From assembly GCA_964427985.1 (NCBI GenBank), contig CAYRWJ010000003.1:753-42895 (forward strand): a stretch of 42,143 nucleotides of DNA, given 5' to 3'. Under the pieces are notes generated by a model. It had not been told where the DNA came from, did no database searches, and saw only the letters and a list, made by a program, of their open reading frames with translations. The DNA is from an uncultured Methanosarcinales archaeon. Lineage in GTDB: Archaea; Nanobdellota; Nanobdellia; Woesearchaeales; JABIAG01. Position 1 is the first letter of the stretch. Every line of letters starts with the position of its first letter. Below are positions 130 through 41,608 of this stretch, piece after piece. A program made the position numbers and the translations under genes.

Positions 130-1218
130 ATGAATCAAGAAGATATTATTACGTTTATTAGAAATAAGGGCCCTATTGTGCCTATGGACCTGGCAAATAA
201 TATGAAAGTTGAGTCATATATTGCTTCTGCTCACTTATCTGATCTTTTATCAAAAAAGCTCATTAAAATTAGTAATTTAAAGATGGGTTCTTCTCCATTG
301 TATTTTCTTCCTGAGCAAAAAAAAATGTTAGAAGGATTTTCAGATTATTTGCACCAAAAGGACAAAATTGCATTTAATGAGTTAAAGGAAAGACTGGTTA
401 TCCGAGATTCTAAAATTCTTCCTTTGTTAAGAGTTTCATTGAGAAATATTAAAGATTTTGCAGTTCCATTAGAAGTGACTTACAAAAACAAAAAAGAAAT
501 TTTTTGGAAATTTTATTCTTTATCTAATGATGAAGCTAGTGATAATATTCGTAAATTATTATTACCTAAAAATGAAGTTAAGCCTGTTGAAGTTGAGAAA
601 GAGGTTAAACATATTGTTAATAAAGAAGTTGAAAAAGAGGAAGTAAAAGAGGAAGTAAAAGAGGAAGTAAAAGAAGAAAAGAAACCGGAAGTAATTAAAG
701 AAGAAGTAAAAGAGGAAGTTAAAGAGTTAAAAGAAATAAAGGAAAAACCAAAACCAATTAAACAAGAGGTTAAACCTATTGTTAATAAAGAAGTTAAAAA
801 AGAGGTTAAACCAAAAGTTATTGATGTTGAAAAAACAGAAAAAAAGGTTATAGTAAAAAAACACAAAAAAGATATTCAAAAACATTTTGAGAAAAAGATT
901 GATTCCTCTGATAAATTTCTTAAACAAGTGAATGATTATTTTGTTGGTATTAACTCCAAGATTATTACTTATGAAATCATTAAAAAAGATTCTGAAATTG
1001 ATTTAGAGGTTGAAATTTCTAGCAGTATTGGAACTTTAATTTATTTTTGTAAAGCTAAGAATAAAAAACGTTTAAATGATTCTGATCTTCATGCTACTTA
1101 TGTTGGTGGTGAATTAAAAAAATTACCTTCAATTTTATTAACATCAGGTAATTTAACAAAAACTTCACAAGAAAAGTTATCTAAAGACTTTCGTAATATT
1201 ATTTTTCTTCAACTTTAA
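130..1218 (+). CDS. Hypothetical protein: N-terminal winged-helix-like region, long E/K/V-rich repeat linker, C-terminal Mrr/PD-(D/E)xK-like domain (function uncertain)
   Basis: 362-aa ATG ORF. TATA-like ATATATATAAAT at 97-108 lies about 27 nt upstream. N-terminus looks like tandem wHTH. The middle is EEVK-type low complexity. The C-terminus has EIDLEVEI...YFCKAKNKK followed by LLTSGNLT, resembling an Mrr-type nuclease core (by eye only). Confidence 0.55.
   Translation: MNQEDIITFIRNKGPIVPMDLANNMKVESYIASAHLSDLLSKKLIKISNLKMGSSPLYFLPEQKKMLEGFSDYLHQKDKIAFNELKERLVIRDSKILPLLRVSLRNIKDFAVPLEVTYKNKKEIFWKFYSLSNDEASDNIRKLLLPKNEVKPVEVEKEVKHIVNKEVEKEEVKEEVKEEVKEEKKPEVIKEEVKEEVKELKEIKEKPKPIKQEVKPIVNKEVKKEVKPKVIDVEKTEKKVIVKKHKKDIQKHFEKKIDSSDKFLKQVNDYFVGINSKIITYEIIKKDSEIDLEVEISSSIGTLIYFCKAKNKKRLNDSDLHATYVGGELKKLPSILLTSGNLTKTSQEKLSKDFRNIIFLQL
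637..672 (+). repeat. Three perfect tandem copies of the 12-nt unit GAGGAAGTAAAA (encodes EEVK x3) inside the 130-1218 CDS
   Basis: Read directly from the sequence; flanked by degenerate copies. Confidence 0.9.
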
Positions 1219-1223
1219 ATAAA

Positions 1224-1703
1224 TCATTTTTTCTTTTTTCTTAATATTATAAAAAAGAAAACTATGAGCAAGATTATTAATCCCAAAATTATTGTTTTTG
1301 TGTTTTTGGTTTTATTTAAGTCAAAACTCATTTGCTCGTTTTCTTTTGTTATTACTATTTCTTTTTCGTTTTCAAATGAGGGTATTATTAATGAAAAATT
1401 GAATTTGTTTTTTATCTCACTCCTTCCTAAATTGTATGTTCCATCAAAACCATCTAAATATTCTTTTGTAGGTGGTAAAAAGGTAAAAGAATACAATACT
1501 GTGTTTTCTTGTGATATTATTTTTAATAAATATCCTTCTTCAGGTTGTATGTTTCTATCAGGGTAATATCCAATTGTGTTAAATTTTTCTAATATGTTTA
1601 TGTTTTCATTATTATATTCAAGATTAATTACGTTTATTGATGTTGGTTCTGCATAAACTAAAGGAATTAGTAATAATAATAAAATCAAACTTATTTTTTT
1701 CAT
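1224..1703 (-). CDS. Small secreted / type I membrane-anchored protein (signal peptide plus C-terminal TM and KKKK tail)
   Basis: 159 aa. N-terminal MKKISLILLLLLIPLVYA signal-like segment. C-terminal IILGLIILLIVFFFIILRKKKK. ATGA overlap with the upstream protease gene. Confidence 0.65.
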   Translation of the reverse strand: MKKISLILLLLLIPLVYAEPTSINVINLEYNNENINILEKFNTIGYYPDRNIQPEEGYLLKIISQENTVLYSFTFLPPTKEYLDGFDGTYNLGRSEIKNKFNFSLIIPSFENEKEIVITKENEQMSFDLNKTKNTKTIILGLIILLIVFFFIILRKKKK

Positions 1704-2857
1704 TTGTACAGCCCCAATTTATTTTCTATTTCTTCTTTATTTATTGGTCCATAAACATCTCCACCTTTTTTGAAGTAAAGATTCATTATTGAATTTTTTG
1801 TTGCTCTATATAGTGTGCTTAATGTGCATCCTTTGTAACATGATGTTCCATTTACATCTTTCCAAGAATCACAATTAACTTTGTCACAATTGGGTATTTC
1901 ATCAGCTTTTATGTTAAACTGTCCATAATATGCATCATCCACGTATTCATCACCTAAATCACCAAATGCATGTCCAAATTCGTGTGCTAATACTAATGTG
2001 TTGTCTGCAGTATTAATTTTTACTAAATTTCCAATAGCTGAACTCCTTATTGGTGCTGCTAAATTTAATATTTTATTTCTTTCTGTAAGAACTATTATAA
2101 AATCTGTTGGACATTTTGATGCTTGTTTTTTTATTTCAAAATTATTGCATTTTATATAATATGTTAATTCACAATGTTTTGTTGGTTCATTTATTTGATA
2201 AAAATTGAATTTGTTTTTGTTGTTTGAATAAGGTTCAAGTGTTTCAAATACGTTTTTTATGTAAATTAATGCATCATCTGTTAATTTTTTGTTAGTATCA
2301 TATCCATAACCAATAAAGGTTATATCAATTTTTTCTTTATCATCTCCATTATAAATCAAAGAGGTACATTCACTTTTTTTTATCTCTTCAGGATTTGCCG
2401 CAAGTATTTTTGTTTTTTCTCCTAAACTTTCTAATCTTAAGTTGATTTTTGAATTTATGTTTTTGATACAAAGAGGATTTGTTTCTATTTCAAAATTTTC
2501 TATTTTTGCTGAATGAAATTCTTTTGGTTTAAAAAAAATGTTTTTATCTGTTTCTAAATTGGTTTGTATGTCTATTTCTGGATTTGAAAATTTTTGTATT
2601 GTTCCGTTTCTATCAATAAAACAAACCATTTCTATTTGTTCGGGTATGGTGAAAGAAAATGTTTCTGTGCTTCCTTTATTTCTAGTGGAGTATTCATTTA
2701 CTTTTTTTTCTATATTTTTTAGAAAATTTGTGTGTTCTAATCCTATTACTGTTGTATTTACTTCTGATGTTTTTTGATAAAAGAATACTGCAATTAATCC
2801 AATTAATATTATGCTGATGATAATTATAAATGGTAATGCATTGATTTGTCCTTTCAT
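1700..2857 (-). CDS. Membrane-anchored extracellular zinc metallopeptidase (HExxH, M64-like)
   Basis: 385 aa. Motif LAHEFGHAFGDLGDEY (HExxH followed by GDEY, as I recall for the M64 family). N-terminus MKGQINALPFIIIISIILIGLIAVFF resembles a class III (pilin-type) signal or signal anchor. Confidence 0.7.
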   Translation of the reverse strand: MKGQINALPFIIIISIILIGLIAVFFYQKTSEVNTTVIGLEHTNFLKNIEKKVNEYSTRNKGSTETFSFTIPEQIEMVCFIDRNGTIQKFSNPEIDIQTNLETDKNIFFKPKEFHSAKIENFEIETNPLCIKNINSKINLRLESLGEKTKILAANPEEIKKSECTSLIYNGDDKEKIDITFIGYGYDTNKKLTDDALIYIKNVFETLEPYSNNKNKFNFYQINEPTKHCELTYYIKCNNFEIKKQASKCPTDFIIVLTERNKILNLAAPIRSSAIGNLVKINTADNTLVLAHEFGHAFGDLGDEYVDDAYYGQFNIKADEIPNCDKVNCDSWKDVNGTSCYKGCTLSTLYRATKNSIMNLYFKKGGDVYGPINKEEIENKLGLYK

Positions 2858-6725: not shown

Positions 6726-7160
6726 ATGACAAAAAAGTTTGGTAATTTAAGCGTAACTGAAGAAGGTGGCGTTGATCACCTTGTTATTGGTGGCGGATTT
6801 CCTTTTTATCTTGTTCGTGGCAGGGTAATTCGTCCTTTAAGAGGAAGAGATAATTTTATTGAGTTTGGTATTGATAATCCTAATACTATTGAACGTAGAC
6901 CTAAGTTTGAAGGTTATCTTCCTATTCTTCCCGGAGATATTGCCATTGTTGTTTTTAAACAATTTTATAGGAATGATAAAACAAATGATCGTGTTTGTAC
7001 TAAACCTGGAGAAATTATAGCTCCTTATGCTGCCGCTGTTGCATTTCAAAGAGGATTTCATAATTTTATTGGAACTTTTGTTGATACAAAAACTGCAGAT
7101 TTACCTTCTAAATTTGATGTTGAAGAGTTAGAAAGAGAACTTAATGCTTATTTTCAATAA
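6726..7160 (+). CDS. Hypothetical protein
   Basis: 144-aa ATG ORF with non-repetitive composition. Its stop abuts the PAN stop codon (TAATTA, 0-nt gap). Confidence 0.6.
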   Translation: MTKKFGNLSVTEEGGVDHLVIGGGFPFYLVRGRVIRPLRGRDNFIEFGIDNPNTIERRPKFEGYLPILPGDIAIVVFKQFYRNDKTNDRVCTKPGEIIAPYAAAVAFQRGFHNFIGTFVDTKTADLPSKFDVEELERELNAYFQ

Positions 7161-9485: not shown

Positions 9486-10106
9486 TTAAGATTTTGGTAT
9501 GATTTTTAATTCTCTACTTAATTTTGTTAATACGCCTTCTCCAACACAGACATCATCTTCTATTCTTATTCCATAATGTCCTTTTAGGTAAAATCCGGGT
9601 TCTATTGTGATTACTTCTCCTTTTTTTAGTTTTGTGTTCATTTTTGCGTGAACTTCTTTCCCTAATCCATGGCTTAATGCATGTATAAATAATTTATTTT
9701 TATTTCCTAATCTTTTTCTAAATGCTTTTTCAATATATTTGGGTTTTGCATTAATTTTAACTTGTTTTAACATTTTATAATGTTCTCTTAATAAATAATT
9801 ATACAACTTTTTTTCTTCATCTGAGGGAGTTCCAAGATATATTGTTCGTGTTACATCTCCACACATCCCGTTATGTTTGATTCCAAAGTCTATTACACAA
9901 AAACCTTTTTCTAATATTTCATTTCCAAAATAATGTGGGTTTGCTGCGTTTTTTCCTGATGCTACAATGGTTTCAAAGGATAATTCTACATTTTTTTCTA
10001 AGAATTCTTTTACTTCTTTTTCAGTTTTGAATGAATCGAATTTTTCAATACATTCTTTTATTCGTTCACAGGTTAATTGACATGCTTTTTTCATATCTTG
10101 ATTCAT
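9486..10106 (-). CDS. Minimal M24 metallopeptidase (Xaa-Pro/Met aminopeptidase pita-bread domain only)
   Basis: 206 aa. Putative metal ligands in VIDFG, GDVTRT, HGLGKEVH, TIEPG and IRIEDD. No creatinase-like N-domain. Confidence 0.82.
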   Translation of the reverse strand: MNQDMKKACQLTCERIKECIEKFDSFKTEKEVKEFLEKNVELSFETIVASGKNAANPHYFGNEILEKGFCVIDFGIKHNGMCGDVTRTIYLGTPSDEEKKLYNYLLREHYKMLKQVKINAKPKYIEKAFRKRLGNKNKLFIHALSHGLGKEVHAKMNTKLKKGEVITIEPGFYLKGHYGIRIEDDVCVGEGVLTKLSRELKIIPKS

Positions 10107-10414
10107 TTTTGTGTCATCATTGATTTAAGTTGATATTTAAATTCGTTATCATCTACTTTTACTTTAATTGAAATTGTTAAGGTAGTTAAACTTCTTAGTA
10201 TTTCAATATTTATTTTTTTTATTCTTTTAAAATCAAAGCTTTTTGTTAATCGTTCTTTGAAAAAGAAGGCGCACATTTTATCAAAACTATCTTTTTCTTC
10301 TAAAATGTTGGTTATTCTTTCTTTTGGATGGTCTTTATAGTATCCAAATAATATTTGATCTTCTAAATGATGTGCTAAATCATGTATTATGCCATTTATT
10401 ATTGTTAGTTTCAT
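10103..10414 (-). CDS. Hypothetical protein, translationally coupled to the M24 peptidase (ATGA overlap)
   Basis: 103-aa ATG ORF with a 4-nt overlap to the downstream gene. Confidence 0.5.
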   Translation of the reverse strand: MKLTIINGIIHDLAHHLEDQILFGYYKDHPKERITNILEEKDSFDKMCAFFFKERLTKSFDFKRIKKINIEILRSLTTLTISIKVKVDDNEFKYQLKSMMTQK

Positions 10415-10880: not shown

Positions 10881-11834
10881 ATGGAACATTCTATTTGGAT
10901 AGAAAAATATCGGCCCCAAAATTTTGAGGAGATTAAAGGACAGATTGAGATAATTAAGAGAATAAAAGCATTGGTTGAAAAAAAGAATCTTCCTCATTTA
11001 TTGTTTACTGGTCCTGCTGGTGTTGGTAAGACTACTTTGGCGGTTGTTATTGCTAAACAATTGTTTAAGGATACTTGGAGAGAAAATTTTTTAGAATTAA
11101 ATGCTAGTGATGAAAGGGGCATTGATATTGTTAGGACTAAAGTTAAAGACTTTGCTCGTACTAAAGCGATTGGTGAGGTTCCATTTAAAATTATATATCT
11201 TGATGAGTCTGATGCTTTAACAAAGGAAGCTCAACAGGCTTTGCGTAGAACTATGGAGAATTATACTCAAAATTGTCGTTTTATTTTAGCTGCTAATTAT
11301 TCTTCTAAAATTATTGATCCAATTCAGTCTCGTTGTGCTGCTTTTCGTTTTAAACCATTGGAGAAAGAAGAAATTTTTAAATTAATTGATATTATTGTTG
11401 AAAAAGAATCTTTAGTAGTTGATGATAAAGCTAAAGAGGCATTATTTCAGATTAGTCATGGTGATTGTAGAAAATTAGAAAATACACTTCAAAGTTGTGC
11501 GTCTATTTCTAATACTATTACTGAAGAAACTGTTTTTTCTTTAGCGTCTTTTGCTAAACCTGATGAATTAAAGACTGTTTTAACTTTAGCTCTTAAGCAG
11601 GATTTTGAGGCATCTAGGAATGAATTATTAAAGACCATGCTAAAGTATGGTTTAGCTGGTACCGACATTATAAAGCAAATACAGCAAGAAATTTGGAATT
11701 TAGATATTGATGATAAAGCTAAAGTATCTCTTATAGATAAGTGTGGGGAGATTGAGTTTCGTATGGTTGAAGGTAGTGATGAGTTTATTCAGTTAGAATC
11801 TTTGCTTGCACATATTATGATTTCTAAGTCTTGA
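10881..11834 (+). CDS. rfcS: Replication factor C small subunit
   Basis: 317 aa. WIEKYRPQ, Walker A GPAGVGKTT, Walker B IYLDESD, SRC motif QSRCAAFRF. Confidence 0.95.
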   Translation: MEHSIWIEKYRPQNFEEIKGQIEIIKRIKALVEKKNLPHLLFTGPAGVGKTTLAVVIAKQLFKDTWRENFLELNASDERGIDIVRTKVKDFARTKAIGEVPFKIIYLDESDALTKEAQQALRRTMENYTQNCRFILAANYSSKIIDPIQSRCAAFRFKPLEKEEIFKLIDIIVEKESLVVDDKAKEALFQISHGDCRKLENTLQSCASISNTITEETVFSLASFAKPDELKTVLTLALKQDFEASRNELLKTMLKYGLAGTDIIKQIQQEIWNLDIDDKAKVSLIDKCGEIEFRMVEGSDEFIQLESLLAHIMISKS

Positions 11835-11882
11835 TAACTGTTAGTAAGAATTATTAATTAAAAAATAAAAAAGAATAAAAAT

Positions 11883-12791
11883 TTATTCTGTGTGTTTTAT
11901 TATTAATGTTGTTGATATGTCATCACTTACGGAATAACTTAGGTCTATTGTTATTGTTTTTTCATAATCTGTTGCAGAATCTATTTCTACGTTACATCTT
12001 ATTGTTTTAGTTCCATCTTGTAAGTTCACGTATCCTTCGCTGTCTGTTCCTTGACAGGTTAGTCCGTCTATTCCACTAACTTCTACTTTTACTTTATTTT
12101 CAACACTTCTTGTTCCGTCACAGTTTACATTTTCTTTGTATATTTTATTTACACTTCCTTGGTTTGCTATTGTAAAATCAAATTCAATTTTGTTTTGTCC
12201 TGCTGCTCTTTCTGTTAAGGAGGTTATTTGAATTGGAGCTCCTGAACTAAATGTGGGTTTGGATTCTCCAACTTTACATACTTTGCTGTCATCTTTTAAT
12301 ATGTCTTTTATTATACATAAATCGCTTACAGCTTTTGTTGCATAGTCGTAACATATGCTTGCTACGATTGGTCTTTCTAATTCTGCGCCAATAATTGTTC
12401 CTTCATAATTTAATTCATCTATTGTTACTTCTGTTAGTTGGCCGTCAATTAATCCTGCTGAATCTTTTGATGCTCCTTCTAGGTCATCTCTAGGAGTTAA
12501 AACAAAGTCTGTATTACTTAAACCAAATTCTTCTGGGTCAAGTCCTTTTATTGTTACGCTTGCATCTGTTTTTGCTAAATCTGTTTCTCCAATGTTTTCT
12601 AGTTCAATTGCTATTTCAAATGGGAAGTTTCCGTTATCAAATACTTCTAAGGGTGGTGCATCTTCTAAAAATGACATTTTTATTCCTGTTGTTCCACCTG
12701 CAAAGGGGTTTACTTTTCCTGTTTCTTCTTTTTTACATCCCACTAACATGATAATCATTACAATAAATAATGCTAAAATTATTTTTTTCAT
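11883..12791 (-). CDS. Predicted lipoprotein, envelope-operon paralog 3 (unknown family)
   Basis: 302 aa. Signal peptide ending in lipobox LVGC. Shares collinear motifs with 12803-13693 and 13765-14700 (F..APP.E, C-x-Y-x-Y...D-x-C-I, GAPIQITSL, FTIANQG). Confidence 0.75.
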   Translation of the reverse strand: MKKIILALFIVMIIMLVGCKKEETGKVNPFAGGTTGIKMSFLEDAPPLEVFDNGNFPFEIAIELENIGETDLAKTDASVTIKGLDPEEFGLSNTDFVLTPRDDLEGASKDSAGLIDGQLTEVTIDELNYEGTIIGAELERPIVASICYDYATKAVSDLCIIKDILKDDSKVCKVGESKPTFSSGAPIQITSLTERAAGQNKIEFDFTIANQGSVNKIYKENVNCDGTRSVENKVKVEVSGIDGLTCQGTDSEGYVNLQDGTKTIRCNVEIDSATDYEKTITIDLSYSVSDDISTTLIIKHTE

Positions 12792-12802
12792 TTTGTTTTA
12801 CC

Positions 12803-13693
12803 TCAGTCTACCCTTTTTATAATAACTCTTTTTGTGATAGAATCTTTATAATTATATCCTAACTGAATGCCTAAAGATGTTCGGTATGATGGTTCGTCTT
12901 CATCTAAGTCATCTCCTGTACATGTTATTGTTCCAGCACCATTTATTATTCTTATCCATTCTGATGGGTTGCAATCTAATTCTTCATCCCCTAAATATAC
13001 TTCTAATAGTTCTACTACGTCTTTGTCGCTTCTTTCTGGGTTTAAACAATCATCATCTCGGAATACTTTTCCCCCACCAACATTTGATATTTTTATTGTA
13101 AATCTTACTTTTTCTTTTAGAGATTCTTGTTGAATTGATGTAACTCCTATTGGTGCTGCTTGTCCGCCCAATCCTGAAACCATTCCTGGAGTACAAGTAT
13201 CTTCATCATTTTTTGTAGGGTTTGGATCAATACATACGTCGATTGGAGCTCGTGTTTCATAATAATAACAGGATGTTACTCTTATGTCTTGAGGTAATGA
13301 ATCTGCATCTTCGTATAATCTTACGTCAAATTCTTCTTCATAAAATTCTAATCCGCCTTCGGGATTAGTTTGTGATTTTCTTCCTTCGATTTCTATTGAA
13401 TCATCATATGACAAATCTATTAAGTTTCGGTCAAAGCCAGAAAAGTATAAATCAACATCTAATTCGTCGTCTTCCTCTTCTGGGAATCCACCTCTATTTC
13501 GTAATTCAATAACTAAAGGGTATGTTTCACCAGCATATAGGTCTTGTGGCGGACTGTTTGTGCTAAACTCTAATACTATTCCTTGATTTCCAGTTTTCCA
13601 GTTTGAGTATTCTCCTGTATCACTGCCTGTACATCCAACCAATACTATTAATGCTAAAATTGTTAATATTATTATCTTAATTTTCATTTTCAT
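12803..13693 (-). CDS. Predicted lipoprotein, envelope-operon paralog 2 (unknown family)
   Basis: 296 aa. Signal peptide with lipobox LVGC. Motifs SPPQDLY, SCYYYETRAPIDVCIDPNP, AAPIGVTSI, IKISNVGGG. Acidic composition. Possible own TATA at about 13718-13727. Confidence 0.75.
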   Translation of the reverse strand: MKMKIKIIILTILALIVLVGCTGSDTGEYSNWKTGNQGIVLEFSTNSPPQDLYAGETYPLVIELRNRGGFPEEEDDELDVDLYFSGFDRNLIDLSYDDSIEIEGRKSQTNPEGGLEFYEEEFDVRLYEDADSLPQDIRVTSCYYYETRAPIDVCIDPNPTKNDEDTCTPGMVSGLGGQAAPIGVTSIQQESLKEKVRFTIKISNVGGGKVFRDDDCLNPERSDKDVVELLEVYLGDEELDCNPSEWIRIINGAGTITCTGDDLDEDEPSYRTSLGIQLGYNYKDSITKRVIIKRVD

Positions 13694-13764
13694 TTATTTT
13701 TCCTCTTTAAGGTATTTAAACTTTTCTATAAGTTTAAGCTCAGAGCGTAATACAATTCGCTTTT

Positions 13765-14700
13765 TTATATTTGTTTTTTTATTATAAATAGGTTTGTGTT
13801 AGTTTCATCTTTGTATCCATAATCTATTGTTAAGGTTATGCTTCCTAAATATGCTTCTTTTGAGTATGAAATTTCGGTTCCTTCACATATCATTTCAGTA
13901 GTTTCTACCTCAACATATTCATCCCCGTCTTGTCTTTGTTCTATTTTTAGTTGGTTGTGGGTGCAGGTTAGTTGATCATATCCTAAATAAATTTTACTTA
14001 CATCTAATAATCCCACTTTTGCAGGTTTTAGTCCTGTTGAAGAACAGGCAGTTTCATATGAATCTTTTGCTATTACTGTTCCTGTTCCAAGATTTTCTAT
14101 TTCAAATTTGAAGGTGGGGATTACTCCTGTTTTTGTGGGTAACATTTTTGTATCCATTGAGATTACAGCAACTGGCGCTCCTTGTCCGTTTCTAAATGAT
14201 CTTTTTTGTTCTGGACATTCTTCTGGCTTGTTTGTTTTTTCTCCAAGAATATCTGGGTCTATACATATGTCTGTTGAAAAAATAGTAGTATAAGGATAAC
14301 AATAACTAATTTTGAATTCTGTTTTTTGCATTTCAGATGCAAAAATTGTTTTTGTTTGGATGTCAATTACTTTTATTTCAGTATCTCCATAAGGATTTTC
14401 TAAACTTCTTCCATCTAATCTTGCATAATAAAGATCTTCAAAATTTTCAAATAAACTTCTTTGAGTGCTCAACACAATTTTTGCTTTGTCTATGTCTGCT
14501 GTGCCTGCGTTGTGAGCATTAAAGCCTAATGAGAACTGGTTGTTTTCATATACTTCTTTGGGTGGTGCATTTGGTAAAAAATCAATTATTAATCCTTCTT
14601 TTCCTTGATGTATGTTGTATTCATTAGATTGGTTTCCACTACATGCAGTAATTAAAAATAAGCCGATGATAATCAGTGTTGTTAATATTATTTTTTTCAT
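13765..14700 (-). CDS. Predicted lipoprotein, envelope-operon paralog 1 (unknown family)
   Basis: 311 aa. Signal peptide with lipobox ITAC. Motifs APPKEVY, YCYPYTTIFSTDICIDPD, GAPVAVISM, FEIENLGTG. Confidence 0.75.
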   Translation of the reverse strand: MKKIILTTLIIIGLFLITACSGNQSNEYNIHQGKEGLIIDFLPNAPPKEVYENNQFSLGFNAHNAGTADIDKAKIVLSTQRSLFENFEDLYYARLDGRSLENPYGDTEIKVIDIQTKTIFASEMQKTEFKISYCYPYTTIFSTDICIDPDILGEKTNKPEECPEQKRSFRNGQGAPVAVISMDTKMLPTKTGVIPTFKFEIENLGTGTVIAKDSYETACSSTGLKPAKVGLLDVSKIYLGYDQLTCTHNQLKIEQRQDGDEYVEVETTEMICEGTEISYSKEAYLGSITLTIDYGYKDETNTNLFIIKKQI

Positions 14701-14704
14701 TTTT

Positions 14705-16576
14705 TTATGCTACTTCAAATGTTTTTATTCTACAACCATATCGGCCATCTATCCATTTACATTGATTTTTTGTGCTTTCACAATTTTCTTCTGTTTTTTC
14801 TTTGCAATCTATTGCAATTTGTTTGTGGGTTTCTCCACAATTTTCTCCATTTTCTAATAATTTTGTGCTTTTTTCTTTTCCTGCAACAGTGATTATACAT
14901 TCACAAGTGTCTACTGTGCATAACTGTATGTCGTCATTTTTAATCACCACAATCTTTTCAAATTCTTGTATTTCAAATTTTACGCCTTTTTGTATTCTGT
15001 ATTCATATTCTGCTAATACCTGAAAAAAATCTCTTGTGATTTCATCTGCCACATAAAGCGCTTCAGGTGTGATTAGTAAATCACAGGTTATTTTCATTCG
15101 GTTTCCAGGTTCCATGTTTCGATTTTTTGTAAATTTTAAGTATGATTGAGTTTTTTCATAATTTAATACCGCAGGATTGGTTCCATCCATTGGCGGATTG
15201 CAAGCTCTTATTTTTACTCCTTCTGGTAACATTAATGAAATTTGTTTAAAATGGTCTATTGTTCCTTCTCCAACATTTTCAAATTCTACCCCAAATCTGA
15301 CTGGCATTTCTTGAGTTGCTATTAATACATCTTTTTTGACAAAAGTATCTAAAATCTTAATTGATACTGGTCCTGGGGTGTATCTTGCAGTACTCTTTTC
15401 AAATTGATATCCTGTTTTAAACAGTTCATCAAATTTTGTTACACTTACCATTGGTTTTTCTATTGAACTTGCTGAAATAAAATCAAATTTTGCTTGCATA
15501 AATATTGTTCTACTTTTATCATTTCCTACTTCTAAATTATTAAAATTACATGATGTTCCAATAAATTGGTTTTCGATGTATTTAAAATCTAATATTGCTG
15601 GAACCATGGTTCCTTGTTCATTTCTATTTGTAAAACAACTTAATTCGATTTGGTCTGATGCGCATTTTACTCCTGCAGTTTGGCATATATCTGAGTCTAA
15701 TCCTCTTCCAGATATTCCTCCAGTTATGAATGCATACTCAACTTTTCCGTCTGTTTTTATGAGTGGTTGTCTTTCTGAACTGGTTGTTTTTTGGTCATCA
15801 ACTTCGAGATTTAATCCTAATTTTTTATTTGCGTATTCATCAACTTTTCCTGCAAACACATCTCCTGTTATGGCTATTTCTGCTTGTCTGTCAAATTGTC
15901 CTTTTATTTTATCTATAGTTTTTGCAAATAAACTTCCAACTTTGTTTAATGTTTGCCAATATTCTTCTTCGGCAAAGTATTTTATGAATTTTCTACCTGC
16001 ATTCCCCACAAATTTTGCTCCTGAGTCTCCACTAAATAAGAATCCTGCTGATAATATTAATATAATTACTATTATTGCTGCAATAACCATTGTTGGTTTC
16101 CTTCCTTTTTGCATTAATATCCTAATTTTTTGTTTTGTTGAAGCTTGTTTTGTATCTGCTCCAGAAATTTTATCAACTGTTTTGTTTAATCTGCTTAGTC
16201 CTGTAATTTTTGATAGAACTGGATGTGCATCTCCAAAACTTCTTGCTAATTTTACTCCTGCTCCAACTGCCATGCCTTCAGGTCCAAATCCTGATGCTAA
16301 TTGTGCTACTTGTTCGCTTCCTTCTCGTTTAGCATTAGCTGCTTGTTTTTCAATATCTGCAACTTTTCTTTTTTCTCTTGCTGCTTTTAGTTCTTGATAA
16401 GAAATAGCATGTTCTTTCATTAACTTTCTTTTGTCTTGTGTTCTTAGTTGAGGATCATGAAATATTTTGTGTGAAGCGCCTTTATTTTTTATTTCAACTT
16501 TTAATTTAGAAGGAGTAATTCTTTTTTTATTTAGATATGCATCTATTGCTAAATCGATTGCACTTTTTTTAGCCAT
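14705..16576 (-). CDS. Bitopic membrane protein: basic cytoplasmic N-domain, one TM, large ectodomain related to the lipoprotein paralogs, Cys-rich C-terminal tail
   Basis: 623 aa. TM helix MVIAAIIVIILILSAGFLF around residue 165. GPVSIKIL...FGVEFENVGEG module. 8 Cys in the last 71 residues. 4-nt gap to the downstream gene and 1-nt gap to the upstream gene. Confidence 0.75.
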   Translation of the reverse strand: MAKKSAIDLAIDAYLNKKRITPSKLKVEIKNKGASHKIFHDPQLRTQDKRKLMKEHAISYQELKAAREKRKVADIEKQAANAKREGSEQVAQLASGFGPEGMAVGAGVKLARSFGDAHPVLSKITGLSRLNKTVDKISGADTKQASTKQKIRILMQKGRKPTMVIAAIIVIILILSAGFLFSGDSGAKFVGNAGRKFIKYFAEEEYWQTLNKVGSLFAKTIDKIKGQFDRQAEIAITGDVFAGKVDEYANKKLGLNLEVDDQKTTSSERQPLIKTDGKVEYAFITGGISGRGLDSDICQTAGVKCASDQIELSCFTNRNEQGTMVPAILDFKYIENQFIGTSCNFNNLEVGNDKSRTIFMQAKFDFISASSIEKPMVSVTKFDELFKTGYQFEKSTARYTPGPVSIKILDTFVKKDVLIATQEMPVRFGVEFENVGEGTIDHFKQISLMLPEGVKIRACNPPMDGTNPAVLNYEKTQSYLKFTKNRNMEPGNRMKITCDLLITPEALYVADEITRDFFQVLAEYEYRIQKGVKFEIQEFEKIVVIKNDDIQLCTVDTCECIITVAGKEKSTKLLENGENCGETHKQIAIDCKEKTEENCESTKNQCKWIDGRYGCRIKTFEVA

Positions 16577-16577
16577 A

Positions 16578-17789
16578 TTACCTCTTTCTTTTTTCTATTT
16601 TTATTGCAAGTTTTAGAACATCTATTGAATCATCGTCCACAGATAATTTGATTACGTTATTGCCTTCTTCTAAATAACTGTCAATTATTTTTGTAAATTC
16701 TTCATCTCTTTGATAGATGCCAATATCTCGATTGTTAATTTCTAGTTTCATGTTGATGTATTCATCATCAACTACAAATTCCATAGTCATATTTGCGATA
16801 TAATCACTATCTGATATGTCTTCCCATTGGTCTTCATTTATATATACATAAAATTTTGGTTCTCTTTTTTCTTTTAAATCAGTTTTTACTTTGATTCTAT
16901 CTACTAAATATGTTCCTTTTTCTGTTTTAAATCCGATTTCATTTATGCCCGTTGTTATGTATGCTGGCGGAATAAAAAGTGTGTTTAATACATTGCAATC
17001 TGGTACTGCACTAAATATTTCATTTGTGTTTATTCTTATGTGTAGTTTTCCTGCACCTATGCCTTGACATTCAGGTACAAATCTTAATCTTGCTTCGTTT
17101 ATGTTGTCTCTTGAGTCTAATATGTTAAATACAGTTTTTGTATCTTGTCCTGAAACATCTGTTATGTCTGCTAATATTTTTACGTTTTCAAAAGAATAAT
17201 CGTTTGCATTCCAAAATGCAATTCCTACTGATGATGTTGAAAATTCAACGGTATTACTTCCTGTGCTTAATTTTTCTTTTGGTAACATTATTGAATCAGA
17301 ATTATACTGATTTATGTCTTTTTCATAAATCATTTGTGAGTTTAATCTTATTGATAATATTCCCTCATTTTTTAAGGTGTTAAAAGATAATAATAAATTA
17401 TTTATGTTGTTTTTATCTATTATTTCAAATTCTATTGTTTTGGCTTTTTTTGTAAACCAACTATTCTTAATAATGAATGGATTTTCTTTTTTTATAATTT
17501 CGGCATCGGTGGTTCTTACAAGTTTAACTGAAGGTAAATCATATTCATATTGTGTTCTTCCTTCTTCTTCTATTCTTCCTGGACTAACATCTAATAATAC
17601 TCTGCTATTAGTTGTGCTGGTTATTGTTCCTGAACTATGTACGTTTCCATTTCCAATACTTGATCCTGTGTCCAAATCTAATAATTCATTTCGTGCATCA
17701 GAAGGAATTAATAACACATATAATATTAAAAATATCGCAAATAAGAATACTAATACTGCTGCATATGCAGCATCTCCTTTTTTATTCAT
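16578..17789 (-). CDS. N-terminally anchored (possibly class III/pilin-type signal) extracellular beta-rich protein, first gene of the envelope operon
   Basis: 403 aa. MNKKGDAAYAAVLVFLFAIFLILYVLLIP N-terminus; the rest is hydrophilic and beta-strand-like. Leaderless-type spacing to the TATA at 17807-17818. Confidence 0.72.
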   Translation of the reverse strand: MNKKGDAAYAAVLVFLFAIFLILYVLLIPSDARNELLDLDTGSSIGNGNVHSSGTITSTTNSRVLLDVSPGRIEEEGRTQYEYDLPSVKLVRTTDAEIIKKENPFIIKNSWFTKKAKTIEFEIIDKNNINNLLLSFNTLKNEGILSIRLNSQMIYEKDINQYNSDSIMLPKEKLSTGSNTVEFSTSSVGIAFWNANDYSFENVKILADITDVSGQDTKTVFNILDSRDNINEARLRFVPECQGIGAGKLHIRINTNEIFSAVPDCNVLNTLFIPPAYITTGINEIGFKTEKGTYLVDRIKVKTDLKEKREPKFYVYINEDQWEDISDSDYIANMTMEFVVDDEYINMKLEINNRDIGIYQRDEEFTKIIDSYLEEGNNVIKLSVDDDSIDVLKLAIKIEKRKR

Positions 17790-17806
17790 GTTCTAAAATA
17801 ATTAAC

Positions 17807-17818
17807 TTTATATATAAA
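17807..17818. promoter_or_regulatory. Perfectly palindromic TATA element TTTATATATAAA centred between two divergent start codons (17789 and 17837)
   Basis: Its reverse complement equals itself. The centre (17812.5) is about 24 nt from each ATG. Confidence 0.5.
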
Positions 17819-17836
17819 TGTTCCTATTTTACGCAC

Positions 17837-18886
17837 ATGAAAAAGATTTTCTTCGATTCTAAAAAAGGAGCCAGACTTCAGGTCGAAAATTTAGACGATT
17901 TGTGGTACTTAAGTCAGCTGGTAGATCAAGGCGATAGTTTGCGCGGTAAAACTTATAGAAAAATTAAATTGTCATCTTCTAATGAAAAGTCCAAGGTAGA
18001 AAAGAAACCAATTACTTTAACTATTTGTGTTGAAAAAGTGGATTTGACTGATTCAAATTTAAAGGTTAATGGGACTGTTTTAACTCCATCTGATGATATT
18101 CCTAAAGGATCTTATCAGTCTATTACTTTAGAAATTAATTCTATTTTGACTCTAACAAAAAATAATTGGTTTAAGTTTCAGATAGAAAGATTGAATGAAG
18201 CATGTTCCCAAAAAGTTAAAGGTATATTGATTGCAATATTGGACAGGGAACTTGCAATTTTTGCACTTACAAAAAATTATGGGTATGATGTTTTAGCTAA
18301 GTTAGAAGGAGATGTTCAAAAAAAGGAAGATCGTAATGTTGCTAAGTCTTCGTTTTATGGGGATGTTATTAATGTAATTCAAACATATTTGGAACGGTAT
18401 AAATTAGATAATGTAATTGTTGCCTCTCCTGCTTTTTGGAAAGAAGAGCTTATGAAAAAGATGGATTCAGAATTAAAAAAGAAGGTAGTTGTTGCTACTG
18501 TTCATTCTGTTGATGAGTCGTCAATTAAGGAAGTTCTTAAACGTGATGAAATTCAAACTATATTAAAAGAAGAAAGAATTACAAAAGAACTTATTGTTGT
18601 TGATAAGTTATTGAAAGAAATTTCTAAAGATGGAAAAGCAGTGTATGGAATTAGGGATGTGTTTAAAGCATCAGAGGTAGGAGCTATTGAAACTCTTCTT
18701 ATAACTGATTCTAAGATTAAAGAATATAGAGAAAAAGGAATTTATGAAAAAGTTGATAATATCCTGAAGGCAGTTGATGTATTAAAAGGTAATGTTAGTA
18801 TTATTAGTGCTAAAAATGATGCAGGTAAAAAATTAAATGGTCTTACAGGGATTGCAGCTATTCTTCGGTATAAACTTAATCTCTAA
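17837..18886 (+). CDS. pelA: Pelota/Dom34 mRNA surveillance protein
   Basis: 349 aa from the internal ATG. MKKIFFDSKKGARLQVENLDDLWYLSQLV N-domain and eRF1-like central and C-terminal domains. The tracked ORF's 75-codon upstream extension overlaps the divergent gene and promoter. Confidence 0.9.
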   Translation: MKKIFFDSKKGARLQVENLDDLWYLSQLVDQGDSLRGKTYRKIKLSSSNEKSKVEKKPITLTICVEKVDLTDSNLKVNGTVLTPSDDIPKGSYQSITLEINSILTLTKNNWFKFQIERLNEACSQKVKGILIAILDRELAIFALTKNYGYDVLAKLEGDVQKKEDRNVAKSSFYGDVINVIQTYLERYKLDNVIVASPAFWKEELMKKMDSELKKKVVVATVHSVDESSIKEVLKRDEIQTILKEERITKELIVVDKLLKEISKDGKAVYGIRDVFKASEVGAIETLLITDSKIKEYREKGIYEKVDNILKAVDVLKGNVSIISAKNDAGKKLNGLTGIAAILRYKLNL

Positions 18887-24923: not shown

Positions 24924-25529
24924 ATGCGTTGTAGACTTCAAGAAAAAAGTTATGATCAATTAAGTATTGCTATTGAAACTGCGTTAAGAGCTAAGTTCCC
25001 TCACAACAGGGGTTGGGGAGTGAAAGTTTTCCCAGTTATTGAGAGCAAGGAAGGTAACAGAAGTCAAAATATACTTATTTCTAATGATGGTCTGTATGTT
25101 TCACGTGCTGCTTCGTTTTATTGGAGTGTTGTTAAGGGTGAACAGCCAAATACTAAACGTGATGATTGTGATTGTTTTAATCGTTATTCTTTTAAATTAG
25201 TTCGAGGTTATATTGCTGGTTCTAAACCTGGCATGGTTAAAAAAAGAGCTAAGTCTGATAGAATTGAATTGGATGAACACGGCAAACCAATTATGATTGA
25301 AGGCAATGTGAGTATGTCTGATTCAGAAGTTAGTACTCGGTTTGAAGCAGTACGTTCAAGTTTAATAGAACTCGTTCCTGAGTTAGAGCAGGTTTTAAAT
25401 CAGCATGTTGAGTGTTCTTTTAATCCTAGAAATGAAAAGCCAGTTAGTCCTAACTATGTTCCTGCTAGGCCAGTTCCATTTAAAGGTAGGTTACTTAGAC
25501 AGCCATTTTTATGGGCGAATTATCTGTAA
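24924..25529 (+). CDS. Orphan hypothetical protein
   Basis: 201-aa ATG ORF on the opposite strand to its neighbours. No motif recognised. GC visibly higher than the local average for non-conserved genes. Confidence 0.6.
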   Translation: MRCRLQEKSYDQLSIAIETALRAKFPHNRGWGVKVFPVIESKEGNRSQNILISNDGLYVSRAASFYWSVVKGEQPNTKRDDCDCFNRYSFKLVRGYIAGSKPGMVKKRAKSDRIELDEHGKPIMIEGNVSMSDSEVSTRFEAVRSSLIELVPELEQVLNQHVECSFNPRNEKPVSPNYVPARPVPFKGRLLRQPFLWANYL

Positions 25530-40243: not shown

Positions 40244-41608
40244 TTATTCTTTTTCCGAGGAAGAACTTTTTTTATCTTCTTTATTGTTTTTCTTTTTTTT
40301 ACTATTTTGTCCTGCAAAAACTCTTCTTCTTGAATAATTTACGGGATTTTTGACTTTTCTACATAAATTATCTGGGAAGCACATTTTCATTCCAGTATAA
40401 TACATTTCATTTGTGCAATTAGGGGGTAATTTTTTCCCATGCTTTTTTGTATATTTTAATTGACCTTTCCAATAAACTTCTTTTAGTGATTCTTTGTTGC
40501 ATTTATTCCATTCTTTTAATCTTTTTTCAATTTGGTCCCAACCCCAACCTGCGCTTGCAAGAAAATTTATTAAAATAAAAACAGCTCTTTTTTTACCATC
40601 ATCTAATCCTTTTAATATGTATTTTATGCAGGGAGGAAATAAGTCTTCCGGTACTGCTTCTTGTAAATCTTCATAGTTTGTTTTTTTCTTAAAAAGTTCT
40701 TCTTCTTCTTTTATTTCGGGTTTGTAATCCATTGCTTGAACAAATAATTGTTCTGCTTCGTTTGGAATTACGTTTTCCCTATCAAAAAATTTTAGAATAT
40801 TTCTTACATTTTCTGGTTTTGCATCAACCCTACTAAAACTTTTGATTTCTTCTGGTTTTATCACCACAGATATTAATCCTGATTTTTCATTATAACAATA
40901 TGGCATTCTACATAAATGTCTTGAAGATATTAGTATTGTATCAACATCTACAACTTCAAAAGGGTCAAACTTTTTTTCTTTTATTAATTCTTTTACTTCC
41001 TTATTTACGTTTTTTGCTATTTCTTCTATGCTTCCTTTTTCTAATAATCCTTTGATGAGATGTTCTCTTATCATTTCTTTTAGGTACATTGCCACTCTTC
41101 TTGCGCCTTCGGGAAACCAAGTTCTTACTTCTTGTTCCATTGTTCTTTTTGGAAATGCTTCAAATGGAACGCCAATATGAAACCCATGATTTCCAGAGAA
41201 TTTACACATTATCGATTTTATTTTATGGTGCTTTAATGCTTCAATTATTAGTGATGATGCAACTTTTGAGTATTCAAAAAATGGTGTGTCAATGTCAATA
41301 ATTAAATCCCATCCTTTTCGTAATTCATCCATTTCTTTTTGTTTTAAATCTAAATTAAGTTGAAGTGGGTCTTTCCATATTTCTTCTGAAAAATGAAATG
41401 ATGTTGCCCCATTTTTAGCTAATTCTAAAACATCAGCAGGGTTATTTATTACATCTGGACGTTTTCCATACCCATATTGGGTTCCATAATCATATTTCAT
41501 TCCTATCTCTTTATCTTTAGATTCTCTTGCTATTGATTTTTGGACGTCTTCACGGCTATAGAATTCTAATACTTCTTCTTTATCCAGTTTTTTGTCTTCT
41601 TTCCCCAT
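40244..41608 (-). CDS. priS: Single-chain archaeo-eukaryotic DNA primase: PriS catalytic domain fused to a PriL-type Fe-S C-terminal domain
   Basis: 454 aa. AEP motifs DLIIDID, FSGNHGFHI, SSRHLCRMPYCYNEKSG. C-terminal FPPCIKYILKG...LPPNCTNE...MCFPDNLCRKVKNPVNYSRRR matches the PriL-CTD four-Cys signature. Confidence 0.9.
   Translation of the reverse strand: MGKEDKKLDKEEVLEFYSREDVQKSIARESKDKEIGMKYDYGTQYGYGKRPDVINNPADVLELAKNGATSFHFSEEIWKDPLQLNLDLKQKEMDELRKGWDLIIDIDTPFFEYSKVASSLIIEALKHHKIKSIMCKFSGNHGFHIGVPFEAFPKRTMEQEVRTWFPEGARRVAMYLKEMIREHLIKGLLEKGSIEEIAKNVNKEVKELIKEKKFDPFEVVDVDTILISSRHLCRMPYCYNEKSGLISVVIKPEEIKSFSRVDAKPENVRNILKFFDRENVIPNEAEQLFVQAMDYKPEIKEEEELFKKKTNYEDLQEAVPEDLFPPCIKYILKGLDDGKKRAVFILINFLASAGWGWDQIEKRLKEWNKCNKESLKEVYWKGQLKYTKKHGKKLPPNCTNEMYYTGMKMCFPDNLCRKVKNPVNYSRRRVFAGQNSKKKKNNKEDKKSSSSEKE

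Follow-up and report, generated by a model that had tools for sequence, protein, structure and literature searches.

Introduction

No woesearchaeon has, to our knowledge, been brought into culture, and literature searches turned up no known host for the group. The only published clue to an interaction of this group with bacteria consists of scattered 'large SLT proteins'. Large extracellular murein transglycosylases (SLT) of Woesearchaeota and Pacearchaeota were described as fam00969 (Castelle et al. 2021, PMC8204110), and a GH23 'large lytic murein transglycosylase' was described for the same two groups (Vigneron et al. 2022, PMC9723730). These proteins were proposed to bind or degrade bacterial walls (PMC8204110, PMC9723730). 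Both papers deal with the catalytic domain of single proteins only; a shared scaffold, lipoprotein paralogs, the protein called g1 below and an operon do not appear in them. A paper on in situ expression in Woesearchaeota mentions neither the proteins studied here nor murein hydrolases.

Here, we analyzed a 42,143-nucleotide stretch of DNA (the window), in which a preliminary description had pointed out five adjacent genes (g1–g5) as an undescribed cell-surface system. The claim of novelty stands for the operon and its other four components, for which no description was found in the literature, but not for g2, as SLT-bearing homologs of g2 already figure in PMC8204110 and PMC9723730. The SLT proteins can now be placed in a defined, position-conserved five-gene system, with a shared scaffold and four partner proteins identified. 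We propose, and give about an even chance to, a surface complex that is particular to this lineage and serves to contact the cell walls of bacteria.

Results

Operon layout, signals and transcription elements

The five minus-strand ORFs (403, 623, 311, 296 and 302 aa, at 11883–17789) were confirmed in coordinates and strand, and the gaps between them, from g1 to g5, were 1, 4, 71 and 11 nt, as claimed.

16578–17789, minus strand: g1, ORF of 403 aa
14705–16576, minus strand: g2, ORF of 623 aa
13765–14700, minus strand: g3, 311 aa, lipoprotein paralog at operon position 1, lipobox ITAC
12803–13693, minus strand: g4, 296 aa, lipoprotein paralog at position 2, lipobox LVGC
11883–12791, minus strand: g5, 302 aa, lipoprotein paralog at position 3, lipobox LVGC

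Homologs of each of the five proteins occur on many contigs at 30–86% identity and in the same order; therefore, g1–g5 are real genes and not chance ORFs. Each product also carries the anchor or export signal ascribed to it: a hydrophobic helix in g1, one hydrophobic segment in g2, and the lipoboxes of g3, g4 and g5. Candidate transcription elements were read around the genes.

17807–17818, minus strand: TATA-like box TTTATATATAAA, read from the sequence, about 29 nt ahead of the g1 start codon (ATG)
13711–13724, minus strand: BRE/TATA-like element AAAGTTTAAATACC, 27 nt upstream of the g4 ATG, inside the 71-nt gap
11860–11881, minus strand: oligo-T runs directly past the g5 stop codon (11883–11885)

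The TATA-like box falls within the 47-nt divergent spacer (17790–17836) between g1 and the Pelota gene, the ATG of which lies at 17837 on the plus strand. By archaeal promoter architecture, it is a candidate g1 promoter. The BRE/TATA-like element is kept in loci L006 and L001 and partly in L004, and a GAGG (13702–13705) lies between it and g4. It is probably an internal promoter that would drive g4 and g5. The oligo-T runs are probably an archaeal terminator that closes the operon; RFC runs convergently towards this g5 end and stops at 11834.

Genomic position and spread

The operon was situated between Pelota and RFC in 10 of 10 contexts examined (the window, L001, L002, L004, L005, L006, L016, L017, L018 and L019), RFC being seen wherever the contig reaches so far. 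The gene order of g1, g2 and three paralogs was kept across all ten, and the identity of g1 to the window copy ranged from 34 to 84% in the six loci measured. Pelota, RFC and PheRS are the flanking core genes. Gene linkage, the absence of which had been named as a possible refutation, is strongly kept in the related loci; these belong to the Woesearchaeota, which bears out the guess of a DPANN archaeon. A locus search with an alignment of the 8 closer g1 sequences returned 10 genomes, a count that reflects the sensitivity of the pattern and not the distribution. A viral or mobile origin was rejected on the grounds of the conserved flanking core genes and the lack of specific matches. The best explanation of these data is that the operon is specific to Woesearchaeota-type DPANN archaea and is vertically inherited. 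Its site beside informational genes is equally compatible with an essential envelope role.

The lipoproteins g3, g4 and g5

The three lipoproteins, which had been called paralogs, are related over their full length (BLASTP E = 1e-19, 1e-15 and 5e-24; 25–27% identity), and the relation holds in proper alignments. The lipobox Cys column is invariant in the family (34/34 members). A regular expression of the [LVI][ASTVI][GAS]C type matched 33 of the 34, the exception being L-M-G-C. By the lipobox, g3, g4 and g5 are predicted lipid-anchored proteins. Nothing relevant to lipid-modification enzymes was found within the annotated parts of the window.

In 157 of 168 comparisons between genomes, the best match of a lipoprotein had the same place in the operon. 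The median bit score was 129 for the same position between genomes versus 63 for different positions within a genome. Judged by these scores, g3, g4 and g5 are ancient orthogroups, each fixed to one operon position, which argues for non-redundant subunits. Locus L003 has a lipoprotein paralog with LRR repeats, an adhesion-type module, fused to it.

The AF2 model of g5 (pLDDT 90, pTM 0.82) showed two tandem beta-sandwiches, which bears out the Ig/CARDB-like fold guessed in the preliminary description. An x-N-x-G strand and a terminal Y-x-Y hairpin are present in both. Six conserved Cys residues accompany the lipobox Cys in g5, and the total is seven in nearly all paralogs. The N-domain and C-domain of the paralogs matched each other with an hhalign E of 0.0014. 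CARDB itself (PF07705) reached 12.9 bits (E = 0.13) on g5 residues 189–243, below the gathering threshold of 22.7 bits, and gave no match in g2, g3 or g4 in the Pfam scan. Foldseek returned generic tandem Ig-like matches for g5 in the PDB (integrin alpha legs, ClfB/SdrG/FnBPA and CupB6) and generic ones in BFVD, with a DUF11-domain protein at the top.

Across the five proteins, scans of Pfam, NCBIfam and PHROGs yielded nothing that places any of them in a named family; the sole PHROGs match, phrog_19175, has no assigned function and falls on the signal-peptide end of g3 (E = 3.2e-5). When the paralog, g1 and g2-family alignments were run against PDB sequence profiles, all that came back was noise from signal peptides or TM segments. 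The Foldseek matches of g5 and g1 (PDB) and of g5 (BFVD) had TM-scores of 0.1–0.25, and since they are generic beta-sandwich or jelly-roll matches, no family was assigned from them. Known S-layer proteins, ABC substrate-binding proteins and proteases gave no significant match in Pfam, NCBIfam, PDB sequence profiles or Foldseek. The view that these proteins resist placement in a named family was upheld, as neither a confident profile match nor a specific fold match to a characterized family emerged.

The g2 scaffold and its ectodomain module

According to hydropathy, g2 has a basic cytoplasmic N-terminal region (about residues 1–162) and a single TM segment (about 163–185). A conserved ectodomain core (186–545) and a Cys-rich tail (546–623) follow.

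14957–15514, minus strand: paralog-like module in g2 (residues about 355–540), homologous to the C-terminal beta-sandwich of the lipoproteins
14708–14941, minus strand: Cys-rich tail of g2, 78 residues with about 10 Cys, where many relatives have a peptidoglycan-hydrolase domain

An exhaustive HMMER scan, with a profile built from 4 sequences only, collected 234 representatives of the g2 family at E ≤ 1e-3. Most relatives have 3–5 N-terminal TM segments, so the single-TM g2 of the window is a reduced variant.

The module is recognizable by the landmarks YTPGPVS... FGVEFENVGEG ... CN ... ITCDL ... YEY. The claim that g2 carries the C-terminal module of the lipoproteins held at the profile level only; pairwise BLASTP gave E = 0.05. 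The g2 family aligned with the trimmed paralog family at an hhalign E of 4.9e-6 over 157 columns, and with the paralog C-domain alone at 5.1e-6, while reversed and column-shuffled controls gave 0.16–0.6. These module E-values rest on the trimmed alignment with its reversed and shuffled controls. The values from the untrimmed alignment A2 (1e-23, and a g1–paralog match) were rejected, because its ragged C-terminal columns produced an artefactual score of about 135, also with a reversed query. The first ectodomain domain of g2 showed no similarity to the paralog N-domain detectable with hhalign.

The exchangeable end of g2

A Pfam scan of 133 g2-family proteins gave 27 peptidoglycan-hydrolase domain matches from seven families (SLT 19, Glucosaminidase 2, 3D 2, and one each of Amidase_2, Lysozyme_like, Peptidase_M15_4 and NlpC/P60), and no other enzyme class. 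Two further loci bear hydrolases, Glucosaminidase in L002 (E = 1.3e-16) and SLT in L005 (E = 7.9e-12). All mapped SLT-like domains come after the conserved core, on its C-terminal side. Since no TM segment lies beyond the core, these domains are expected to be extracellular. A rough NJ tree built on the core shows them dispersed over about 13 positions. The Cys-rich tails form a group of 22 representatives including the window, most of which cluster around it on the NJ tree. In the window, the Pfam scan of full-length g2 gave nothing in the tail, and SLT (PF01464), present in 19 of the 132 other family proteins scanned, gave no match at E ≤ 10.

The preliminary description had seen no catalytic motif, which is right for this window but not for the g2 family, given the 27 hydrolase matches. 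Its suggestion of an attachment apparatus gained support, and because of the hydrolase domains in the family, it can be sharpened to an apparatus probably aimed at bacterial cell walls. Woesearchaeota-type archaea are not known to make peptidoglycan, so binding to a bacterial wall would be the most likely job. A hydrolase tip was found in roughly a fifth of the family representatives. The remaining share (about 80%, window included) has no recognizable hydrolase, and therefore wall cutting is not the universal function.

This last figure also fits a different reading, which we regard as rather unlikely: the operon would encode a general scaffold of the archaeon's own envelope (an S-layer anchor, a pseudo-periplasm spacer or a shape determinant), and the hydrolase tips would be secondary in some lineages. 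The operon looks single-copy and stays beside Pelota, RFC and PheRS in the ten contexts, and its paralogs are tandem beta-sandwiches, like many archaeal surface-layer proteins. However, the sole enzymes fused to g2 target a polymer that these archaea are not known to make, and the variable tips and the LRR-fused paralog look like outward-facing interaction modules rather than parts of a uniform lattice. The S-layer searches reported above speak against this reading as well. The contact complex aimed at bacterial walls remains the reading that we prefer.

The g1 protein

The g1 protein starts with MNKKG followed by DAAYAAVLVFLFAIFLILYVLLIP, that is, with K-K-G and a hydrophobic helix of about 22 residues (residues 6–27 in the AF2 model). 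Its 22 homologs were collected, and [K/R][G/A] stands 4–7 residues ahead of the hydrophobic core in 19 of 20, with a helix of about 21 residues. This agrees with the class III pilin-like pattern (at the very N-terminus, [K/R][G/A] and then a hydrophobic helix of about 20 residues). [K/R][G/A] before a hydrophobic helix is the site pattern of archaeal prepilin peptidases. The N-terminus would thus be a class III/prepilin-like signal or an uncleaved signal anchor.

Residues 38–60 form a disordered Ser/Gly/Thr-rich linker, followed by an all-beta region (AF2 pLDDT 81.6, pTM 0.49). Foldseek matched beta domains of GH35 and GH101 enzymes, BcsB, reelin and Cry1Ac (E = 5e-8 to 1e-3). The region may consist of carbohydrate-binding-like (lectin-like) jelly-roll domains, a weak assignment because the matches are generic and the TM-scores low. 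No profile similarity to the lipoprotein paralogs was seen (hhalign E = 0.42).

With this fold and its class III-like N-terminus, g1 could take part in scavenging of glycans or muropeptides. Together with the lipoproteins, it would capture wall fragments or other glycans that the g2 tip or other enzymes set free, and these would then be taken up. In function, such a set would parallel Sus-type lipoprotein sets or the Sulfolobales bindosome, the binding proteins of which carry class III signals. Like SusE and SusF, the lipoproteins are tandem beta-sandwiches, and a 2026 preprint (10.64898/2026.04.22.720090) reports a wide occurrence in archaea of binding proteins that carry class III signals. 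We nevertheless hold scavenging to be distinctly unlikely: none of the loci showed a transporter gene within the operon or next to it, and no similarity to substrate-binding protein families was seen in Pfam, NCBIfam or PDB sequence profiles.

The N-terminal motif would also suit an accessory of a type IV filament, with g1 as a large minor pilin or tip adhesin, g2–g5 as a membrane base or tip complex, and the machinery encoded elsewhere. This is quite improbable: no prepilin peptidase, assembly ATPase or platform protein was found in the operon, among the annotated window genes (those outside the ribosomal-protein block at about 27.8–39 kb) or in the flanks of related loci, and the motif could just be the positive-inside flank of a signal anchor that stays uncleaved.

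Discussion

A proposed surface complex for contacting bacterial walls

Our proposal of a wall-contacting complex starts from the observed genes, signals, folds, paralogy, synteny and domain fusions. The five products would physically assemble into one cell-surface complex with g2 as its membrane-embedded core. Four homologous modules, one integral (g2) and three lipid-anchored (g3, g4 and g5), would form a hetero-oligomeric stalk or pedestal on the outward-facing side of the membrane; we infer this packing because the g2 ectodomain contains the beta-sandwich module of the lipoproteins. The C-terminal end of g2 would act as an exchangeable tip, carrying a hydrolase (SLT, glucosaminidase, amidase, M15, NlpC/P60 or 3D) in some relatives and, in the window, forming a small disulfide-rich knob with no enzyme. 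The pilin-like helix, whether or not its signal is processed, would hold g1 in the membrane, and the flexible linker would present the jelly-roll domains for glycan binding. In biological terms, the partner would be a bacterium, either host or prey; the complex would bind its peptidoglycan-containing wall, and lineages with a hydrolase would open this wall locally. The version in the window would bind without cutting.

A bolder form of this proposal, which we consider doubtful, is an ancestral Woesearchaeota host-contact organelle. This multi-subunit surface machine, not recognized before, would combine the four homologous beta-sandwich modules with g1 as a lectin on a pilin-like anchor and with the exchangeable tip, and it would dock onto bacteria and breach their walls. 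If true, this very large DPANN lineage would have bacteria, not archaea, as its hosts or prey, and the polytopic N-terminal membrane domain of most g2 relatives could be part of a conduit through which host material is taken up.

As a means of contact between these uncultured archaea and bacteria, the operon is a good candidate. The tip of g2 is modular, with several unrelated wall hydrolases or a putative non-enzymatic knob in the same place. The lectin-like domains of g1, the tip modules and the lipoproteins are testable reagents for finding partners and for identifying a contact structure by cryo-ET. The Pelota–operon–RFC arrangement can serve as a marker locus for comparing lineages with and without wall-cutting tips.

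Comparison with known systems

The VirB1-like wall hydrolases of Gram-positive conjugation (such as PrgK and TcpG) are N-terminally membrane-anchored and expose murein hydrolase domains outside the cell. SusE and SusF are tandem beta-sandwich lipoproteins that accompany a surface enzyme. Both cases are functional analogies only, with no sequence or specific fold relation to the present proteins. Unlike these systems, the operon has no secretion-system or transporter genes nearby, and it is chromosomal and vertically inherited, not mobile.

The CARDB and DUF11 domains (PF07705 and PF01345) are all-beta sandwiches with an x-N-x-G strand, like the paralogs. In contrast to them, the paralogs combine two such domains in a fixed unit that also has a lipobox and six conserved Cys residues. 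The Sulfolobales bindosome proteins GlcS and AraS share with g1 a class III-type N-terminus and a large C-terminal extracellular domain (10.64898/2026.04.22.720090). The short basic N-terminus, the [K/R][G/A], the hydrophobic helix and the large extracellular domain are arranged in g1 as in these proteins, whereas g1 lacks a substrate-binding-protein fold and has no assembly ATPase, platform or peptidase nearby.

A close relation is to the SLT proteins of Woesearchaeota and Pacearchaeota, from which the g2 of the window differs in having no SLT or other hydrolase domain; likeness to fam00969 itself is by description only. Some SLT-bearing g2 relatives in Woesearchaeota are named 'transglycosylase SLT domain-containing protein' (P0095 and P0110). 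The SLT-bearing proteins P0098 and P0200 matched the g2 core profile (hmmsearch E = 2.7e-9 and 5.8e-6), as did that of L005 (E = 2e-38), and all three lie within the Pelota–RFC operon. The woesearchaeal SLT proteins share with g2 the conserved ectodomain core, the operon position, the lineage and a predicted extracellular location.

Operon layout and genomic setting

Re-examination of the sequence gave exactly the five minus-strand open reading frames that the preliminary description had placed in the window, with intergenic spacings of 1, 4, 71, and 11 nt from g1 to g5.

16578-17789, minus strand: g1, 403 aa
14705-16576, minus strand: g2, membrane protein, 623 aa
13765-14700, minus strand: g3, lipoprotein, 311 aa
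13711-13724, minus strand: AAAGTTTAAATACC element, also present in the equivalent gaps of the related loci L006, L001, and L004
12803-13693, minus strand: g4, lipoprotein, 296 aa
11883-12791, minus strand: g5, lipoprotein, 302 aa

The window is chromosomal, with a G+C content of ~30%. Neighboring the operon are genes for an RFC small subunit, a PRC-barrel protein, Pelota, TrmB, and PheRS; SecY, ribosomal proteins, and the putative fused primase lie farther away. A TATA-like box was located 29 nt upstream of g1, within the 47-nt divergent spacer common to g1 and Pelota, and oligo-T runs directly follow the g5 stop codon. The largest gap precedes the second lipoprotein gene in L001, L004, and L006 too. 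The AAAGTTTAAATACC element is kept 25-45 nt upstream of this gene in genomes with as little as 54% g1 identity to the window. It suggests an internal BRE/TATA promoter before g4; the operon would then consist of two units, g1-g2-g3 and g4-g5.

The remainder of the window contained the following features.

40244-41608, minus strand: 454-aa protein matching both PF01896 and PF04104 (primase small-subunit and large-subunit Pfam families)
1700-2857, minus strand: 385-aa protein with a Peptidase_M64 (IgA-peptidase-like) domain (E = 4.4e-12)
130-1218, plus strand: ORF without Pfam match
1224-1703, minus strand: ORF without Pfam match
6726-7160, plus strand: ORF without Pfam match
10103-10414, minus strand: ORF without Pfam match
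24924-25529, plus strand: ORF without Pfam match

The double match of the 454-aa protein points to a fused PriS-PriL primase. This fusion is known in Nanoarchaeota, and the protein would therefore fit a DPANN origin. The Peptidase_M64 protein is an uncommon sort of enzyme in a reduced archaeon. The five further ORFs (103-362 aa) gave no Pfam match at E ≤ 1e-3.

Conservation and variants of the locus

The synteny expected for the operon was recovered: the order g1, g2, and three lipoprotein genes was found again in nine related loci (L001, L002, L004, L005, L006, L016, L017, L018, and L019), always adjoining Pelota, and also RFC wherever the contig extends that far. The identity of g1 to the window was 34-84% in the six loci measured. 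The arrangement was present in every g2-family context examined, including the weakest listed match, which is labelled 'Binatia bacterium' and is evidently a mis-binned archaeal contig. According to the depositors' labels, the named homologs of g1 and of the lipoproteins come from Candidatus Woesearchaeota or Nanoarchaeia. The operon-bearing contigs L007, L008, L010, and L012 bear the title 'uncultured Methanosarcinales archaeon' (binchicken co-assemblies), and that of the homolog P0207 (L018) the title 'Candidatus Binatia bacterium'. Pelota, RFC, and PheRS accompany the operon on these oddly titled contigs, and both titles are probably taxonomic mislabels or reflect mis-binning.

Three loci carry variants. 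L003 encodes a single 1135-aa lipoprotein (11834-15241, plus strand) in place of the three, in which leucine-rich repeats come after one full paralog module (residues 58-356); the gene for a small LRR protein lies downstream. L011 has two paralogs, and the g2 core HMM missed the 1319-aa protein encoded there at the g2 position. The gene order is rearranged in L014.

Lipoprotein paralogs and the module common with g2

Canonical lipoboxes were found in g3, g4, and g5, and the lipobox Cys column is invariant among the 34 family members found. The proposed paralogy was substantiated by full-length alignments (BLASTP E = 1e-15 to 5e-24). The best hit in another genome was at the same operon position in 157 of 168 comparisons, with a median bit score of 129 between genomes at matching positions versus 63 within a genome between different positions. 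Seven Cys residues are present in almost every paralog. Judged by these sequence comparisons, the three lipoproteins are ancient orthogroups, each with a fixed operon position.

The AF2 model of g5 (pLDDT 90, pTM 0.82) displayed two beta-sandwich domains in tandem, each of which contains an x-N-x-G strand and ends in a Y-x-Y hairpin. Profile comparison of the N- and C-terminal halves of the paralogs (E = 0.0014; controls 0.055-0.56) lends weak support to an origin by internal duplication. Foldseek retrieved for g5 generic tandem Ig-like proteins only, at low TM-scores (integrin alpha legs, ClfB/SdrG/FnBPA, and CupB6), and the matches in the viral fold library included a DUF11-domain protein. 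Residues 1-93 of g3 matched phrog_19175 (function not known) weakly (E = 3.2e-5); this match covers the signal-peptide/N-terminal end only and probably stems from the lipoprotein signal.

The module that the preliminary description had assigned to both g2 and the paralogs was not recovered by pairwise BLASTP (E = 0.05), but it was detected at the profile level. With hhalign, g2 residues ~355-540 aligned with paralog residues ~130-293 at E = 4.9e-6 over 157 columns, and the g2 family aligned with the paralog C-domain by itself at E = 5.1e-6 (controls 0.16-0.6). These values were taken after the removal of an alignment-end artefact detected by reversed-query controls, in which ragged C-terminal columns scored ~135 (E ~1e-18) against any query, reversed ones included.

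Architecture and hydrolase tips of the g2 family

Members of the g2 family typically consist of 3-5 N-terminal TM segments, a conserved core, and a variable C-terminal tail (median 105 aa); the core is never followed by a TM segment. Window g2 has one hydrophobic segment (residues ~163-185) preceded by a basic region, and this protein and its closest relative (P0024, from L006) have only a single TM segment ahead of the ectodomain. By comparison with the family, this N-terminus is a reduced form. When the N-terminal region (window 16081-16576, minus strand) was compared with the homologs P0025 and P0026 and with L001 10197-12311, its weakly hydrophobic stretch (ASGFGPEGMAVGAGVKLA) aligned with the region of the relatives' TM helices, which suggests that the polytopic domain was lost recently.

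With the core ectodomain as the query, exhaustive HMMER searching yielded 234 representatives at E ≤ 1e-3.

Hydrolase families in Pfam scans of 133 g2-family proteins (50%-identity cluster representatives; these are family hits, so one protein may count in two families)
SLT (murein lytic transglycosylase domain): 19 members
Glucosaminidase: 2 members
3D: 2 members
Amidase_2: 1 member
Lysozyme_like: 1 member
Peptidase_M15_4: 1 member
NlpC/P60: 1 member

No enzyme class beyond peptidoglycan hydrolases was found in these scans, and the non-catalytic matches were confined to PKD domains, an FN3-like domain (Pur_ac_phosph_N), and one DUF4112. Two further syntenic examples were L002 (Glucosaminidase, E = 1.3e-16) and L005 (SLT, E = 7.9e-12). 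When predicted to be enzymatic, the modular tip on the integral subunit was always a murein hydrolase. SLT-like tails lie C-terminal to the core in all mapped cases and occur at ~13 separate places in a rough, quick NJ tree of the core built on the profile alignment. Window g2 belongs to a subclade with a Cys-rich module of ~40-125 aa as the tail instead of an SLT-like one. No SLT domain was found in window g2; therefore, it is not one of the 'SLT proteins', but belongs to the same scaffold family as a member without a hydrolase.

N-terminal signal and fold of g1

The N-terminus of g1 is MNKKG followed by ~22 hydrophobic residues. In 19 of 20 homologs, a [K/R][G/A] dipeptide stands 4-7 residues ahead of the hydrophobic core, often as KGQ, RAQ, or KAQ. 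This is the pattern of archaeal class III (prepilin-peptidase) signals, and g1 matches it with a putative cleavage site; a plain signal anchor is also possible. The AF2 model (pLDDT 81.6) comprised an all-beta region joined by a disordered linker to a helix at the N-terminus. Foldseek matched it to jelly-rolls of the carbohydrate-binding-like type in GH35 and GH101 enzymes, BcsB, reelin, and Cry toxins, which indicates the fold class and not the family, because the TM-scores were low. Profile comparison (hhalign) revealed no relationship between g1 and the paralogs (E = 0.42).

The g1 family numbered 22 homologs in the sequence search. Longer forms of g1 with extra domains (559-692 aa versus the usual ~400) occur in several distant lineages (L011 1252-2970, L013 3784-5862, L017 117-1823, and L019 5289-6968). 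In the homolog P0004 (380 aa), Gly_rich_2 (PF21722) at residues 31-125 replaces the usual linker and first part; on its 1.2-kb contig, this may be a genuine variant or an artefact of assembly or gene calling.

Proposed function and comparison with known systems

The operon is real, vertically inherited, and lineage-specific. Its five exported or anchored proteins include four copies of one beta-sandwich module and one protein with a pilin-like anchor and beta domains resembling jelly-rolls (g1). None of the five fits a curated family: as initially proposed, no assignment was obtained from Pfam, NCBIfam, or PHROGs, and PDB sequence profiles gave no matches. From the sequences and models, we infer with about an even chance of being right that the four homologous modules would assemble into a hetero-oligomeric stalk, with g1 binding glycan. 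The target would be the wall of a bacterial partner, since to our knowledge murein synthesis is not known in these Woesearchaeota-type archaea, and the enzyme-less version in the window would bind rather than cut.

A structural envelope scaffold is an unlikely alternative reading of the same components, and a set for scavenging glycan or muropeptide is somewhat less likely again. An accessory role for a type IV filament seems improbable.

A wall-directed stalk can be compared with earlier reports. Large extracellular SLT-domain proteins were noted in Woesearchaeota and Pacearchaeota by Castelle et al. 2021 (PMC8204110) and Vigneron et al. 2022 (PMC9723730), who proposed attachment to bacteria or predation on them; the proposal is cited in a 2025 paper on peptidoglycan hydrolases of archaea. 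The scaffold that the family shares, its partner genes, and the operon were not described in any of the literature searched. Those SLT proteins have a common scaffold family with window g2, although the SLT domain is theirs and not that of window g2. The operon is related in kind to surface adhesion and wall-hydrolase complexes, from which window g2 differs in having no hydrolase.
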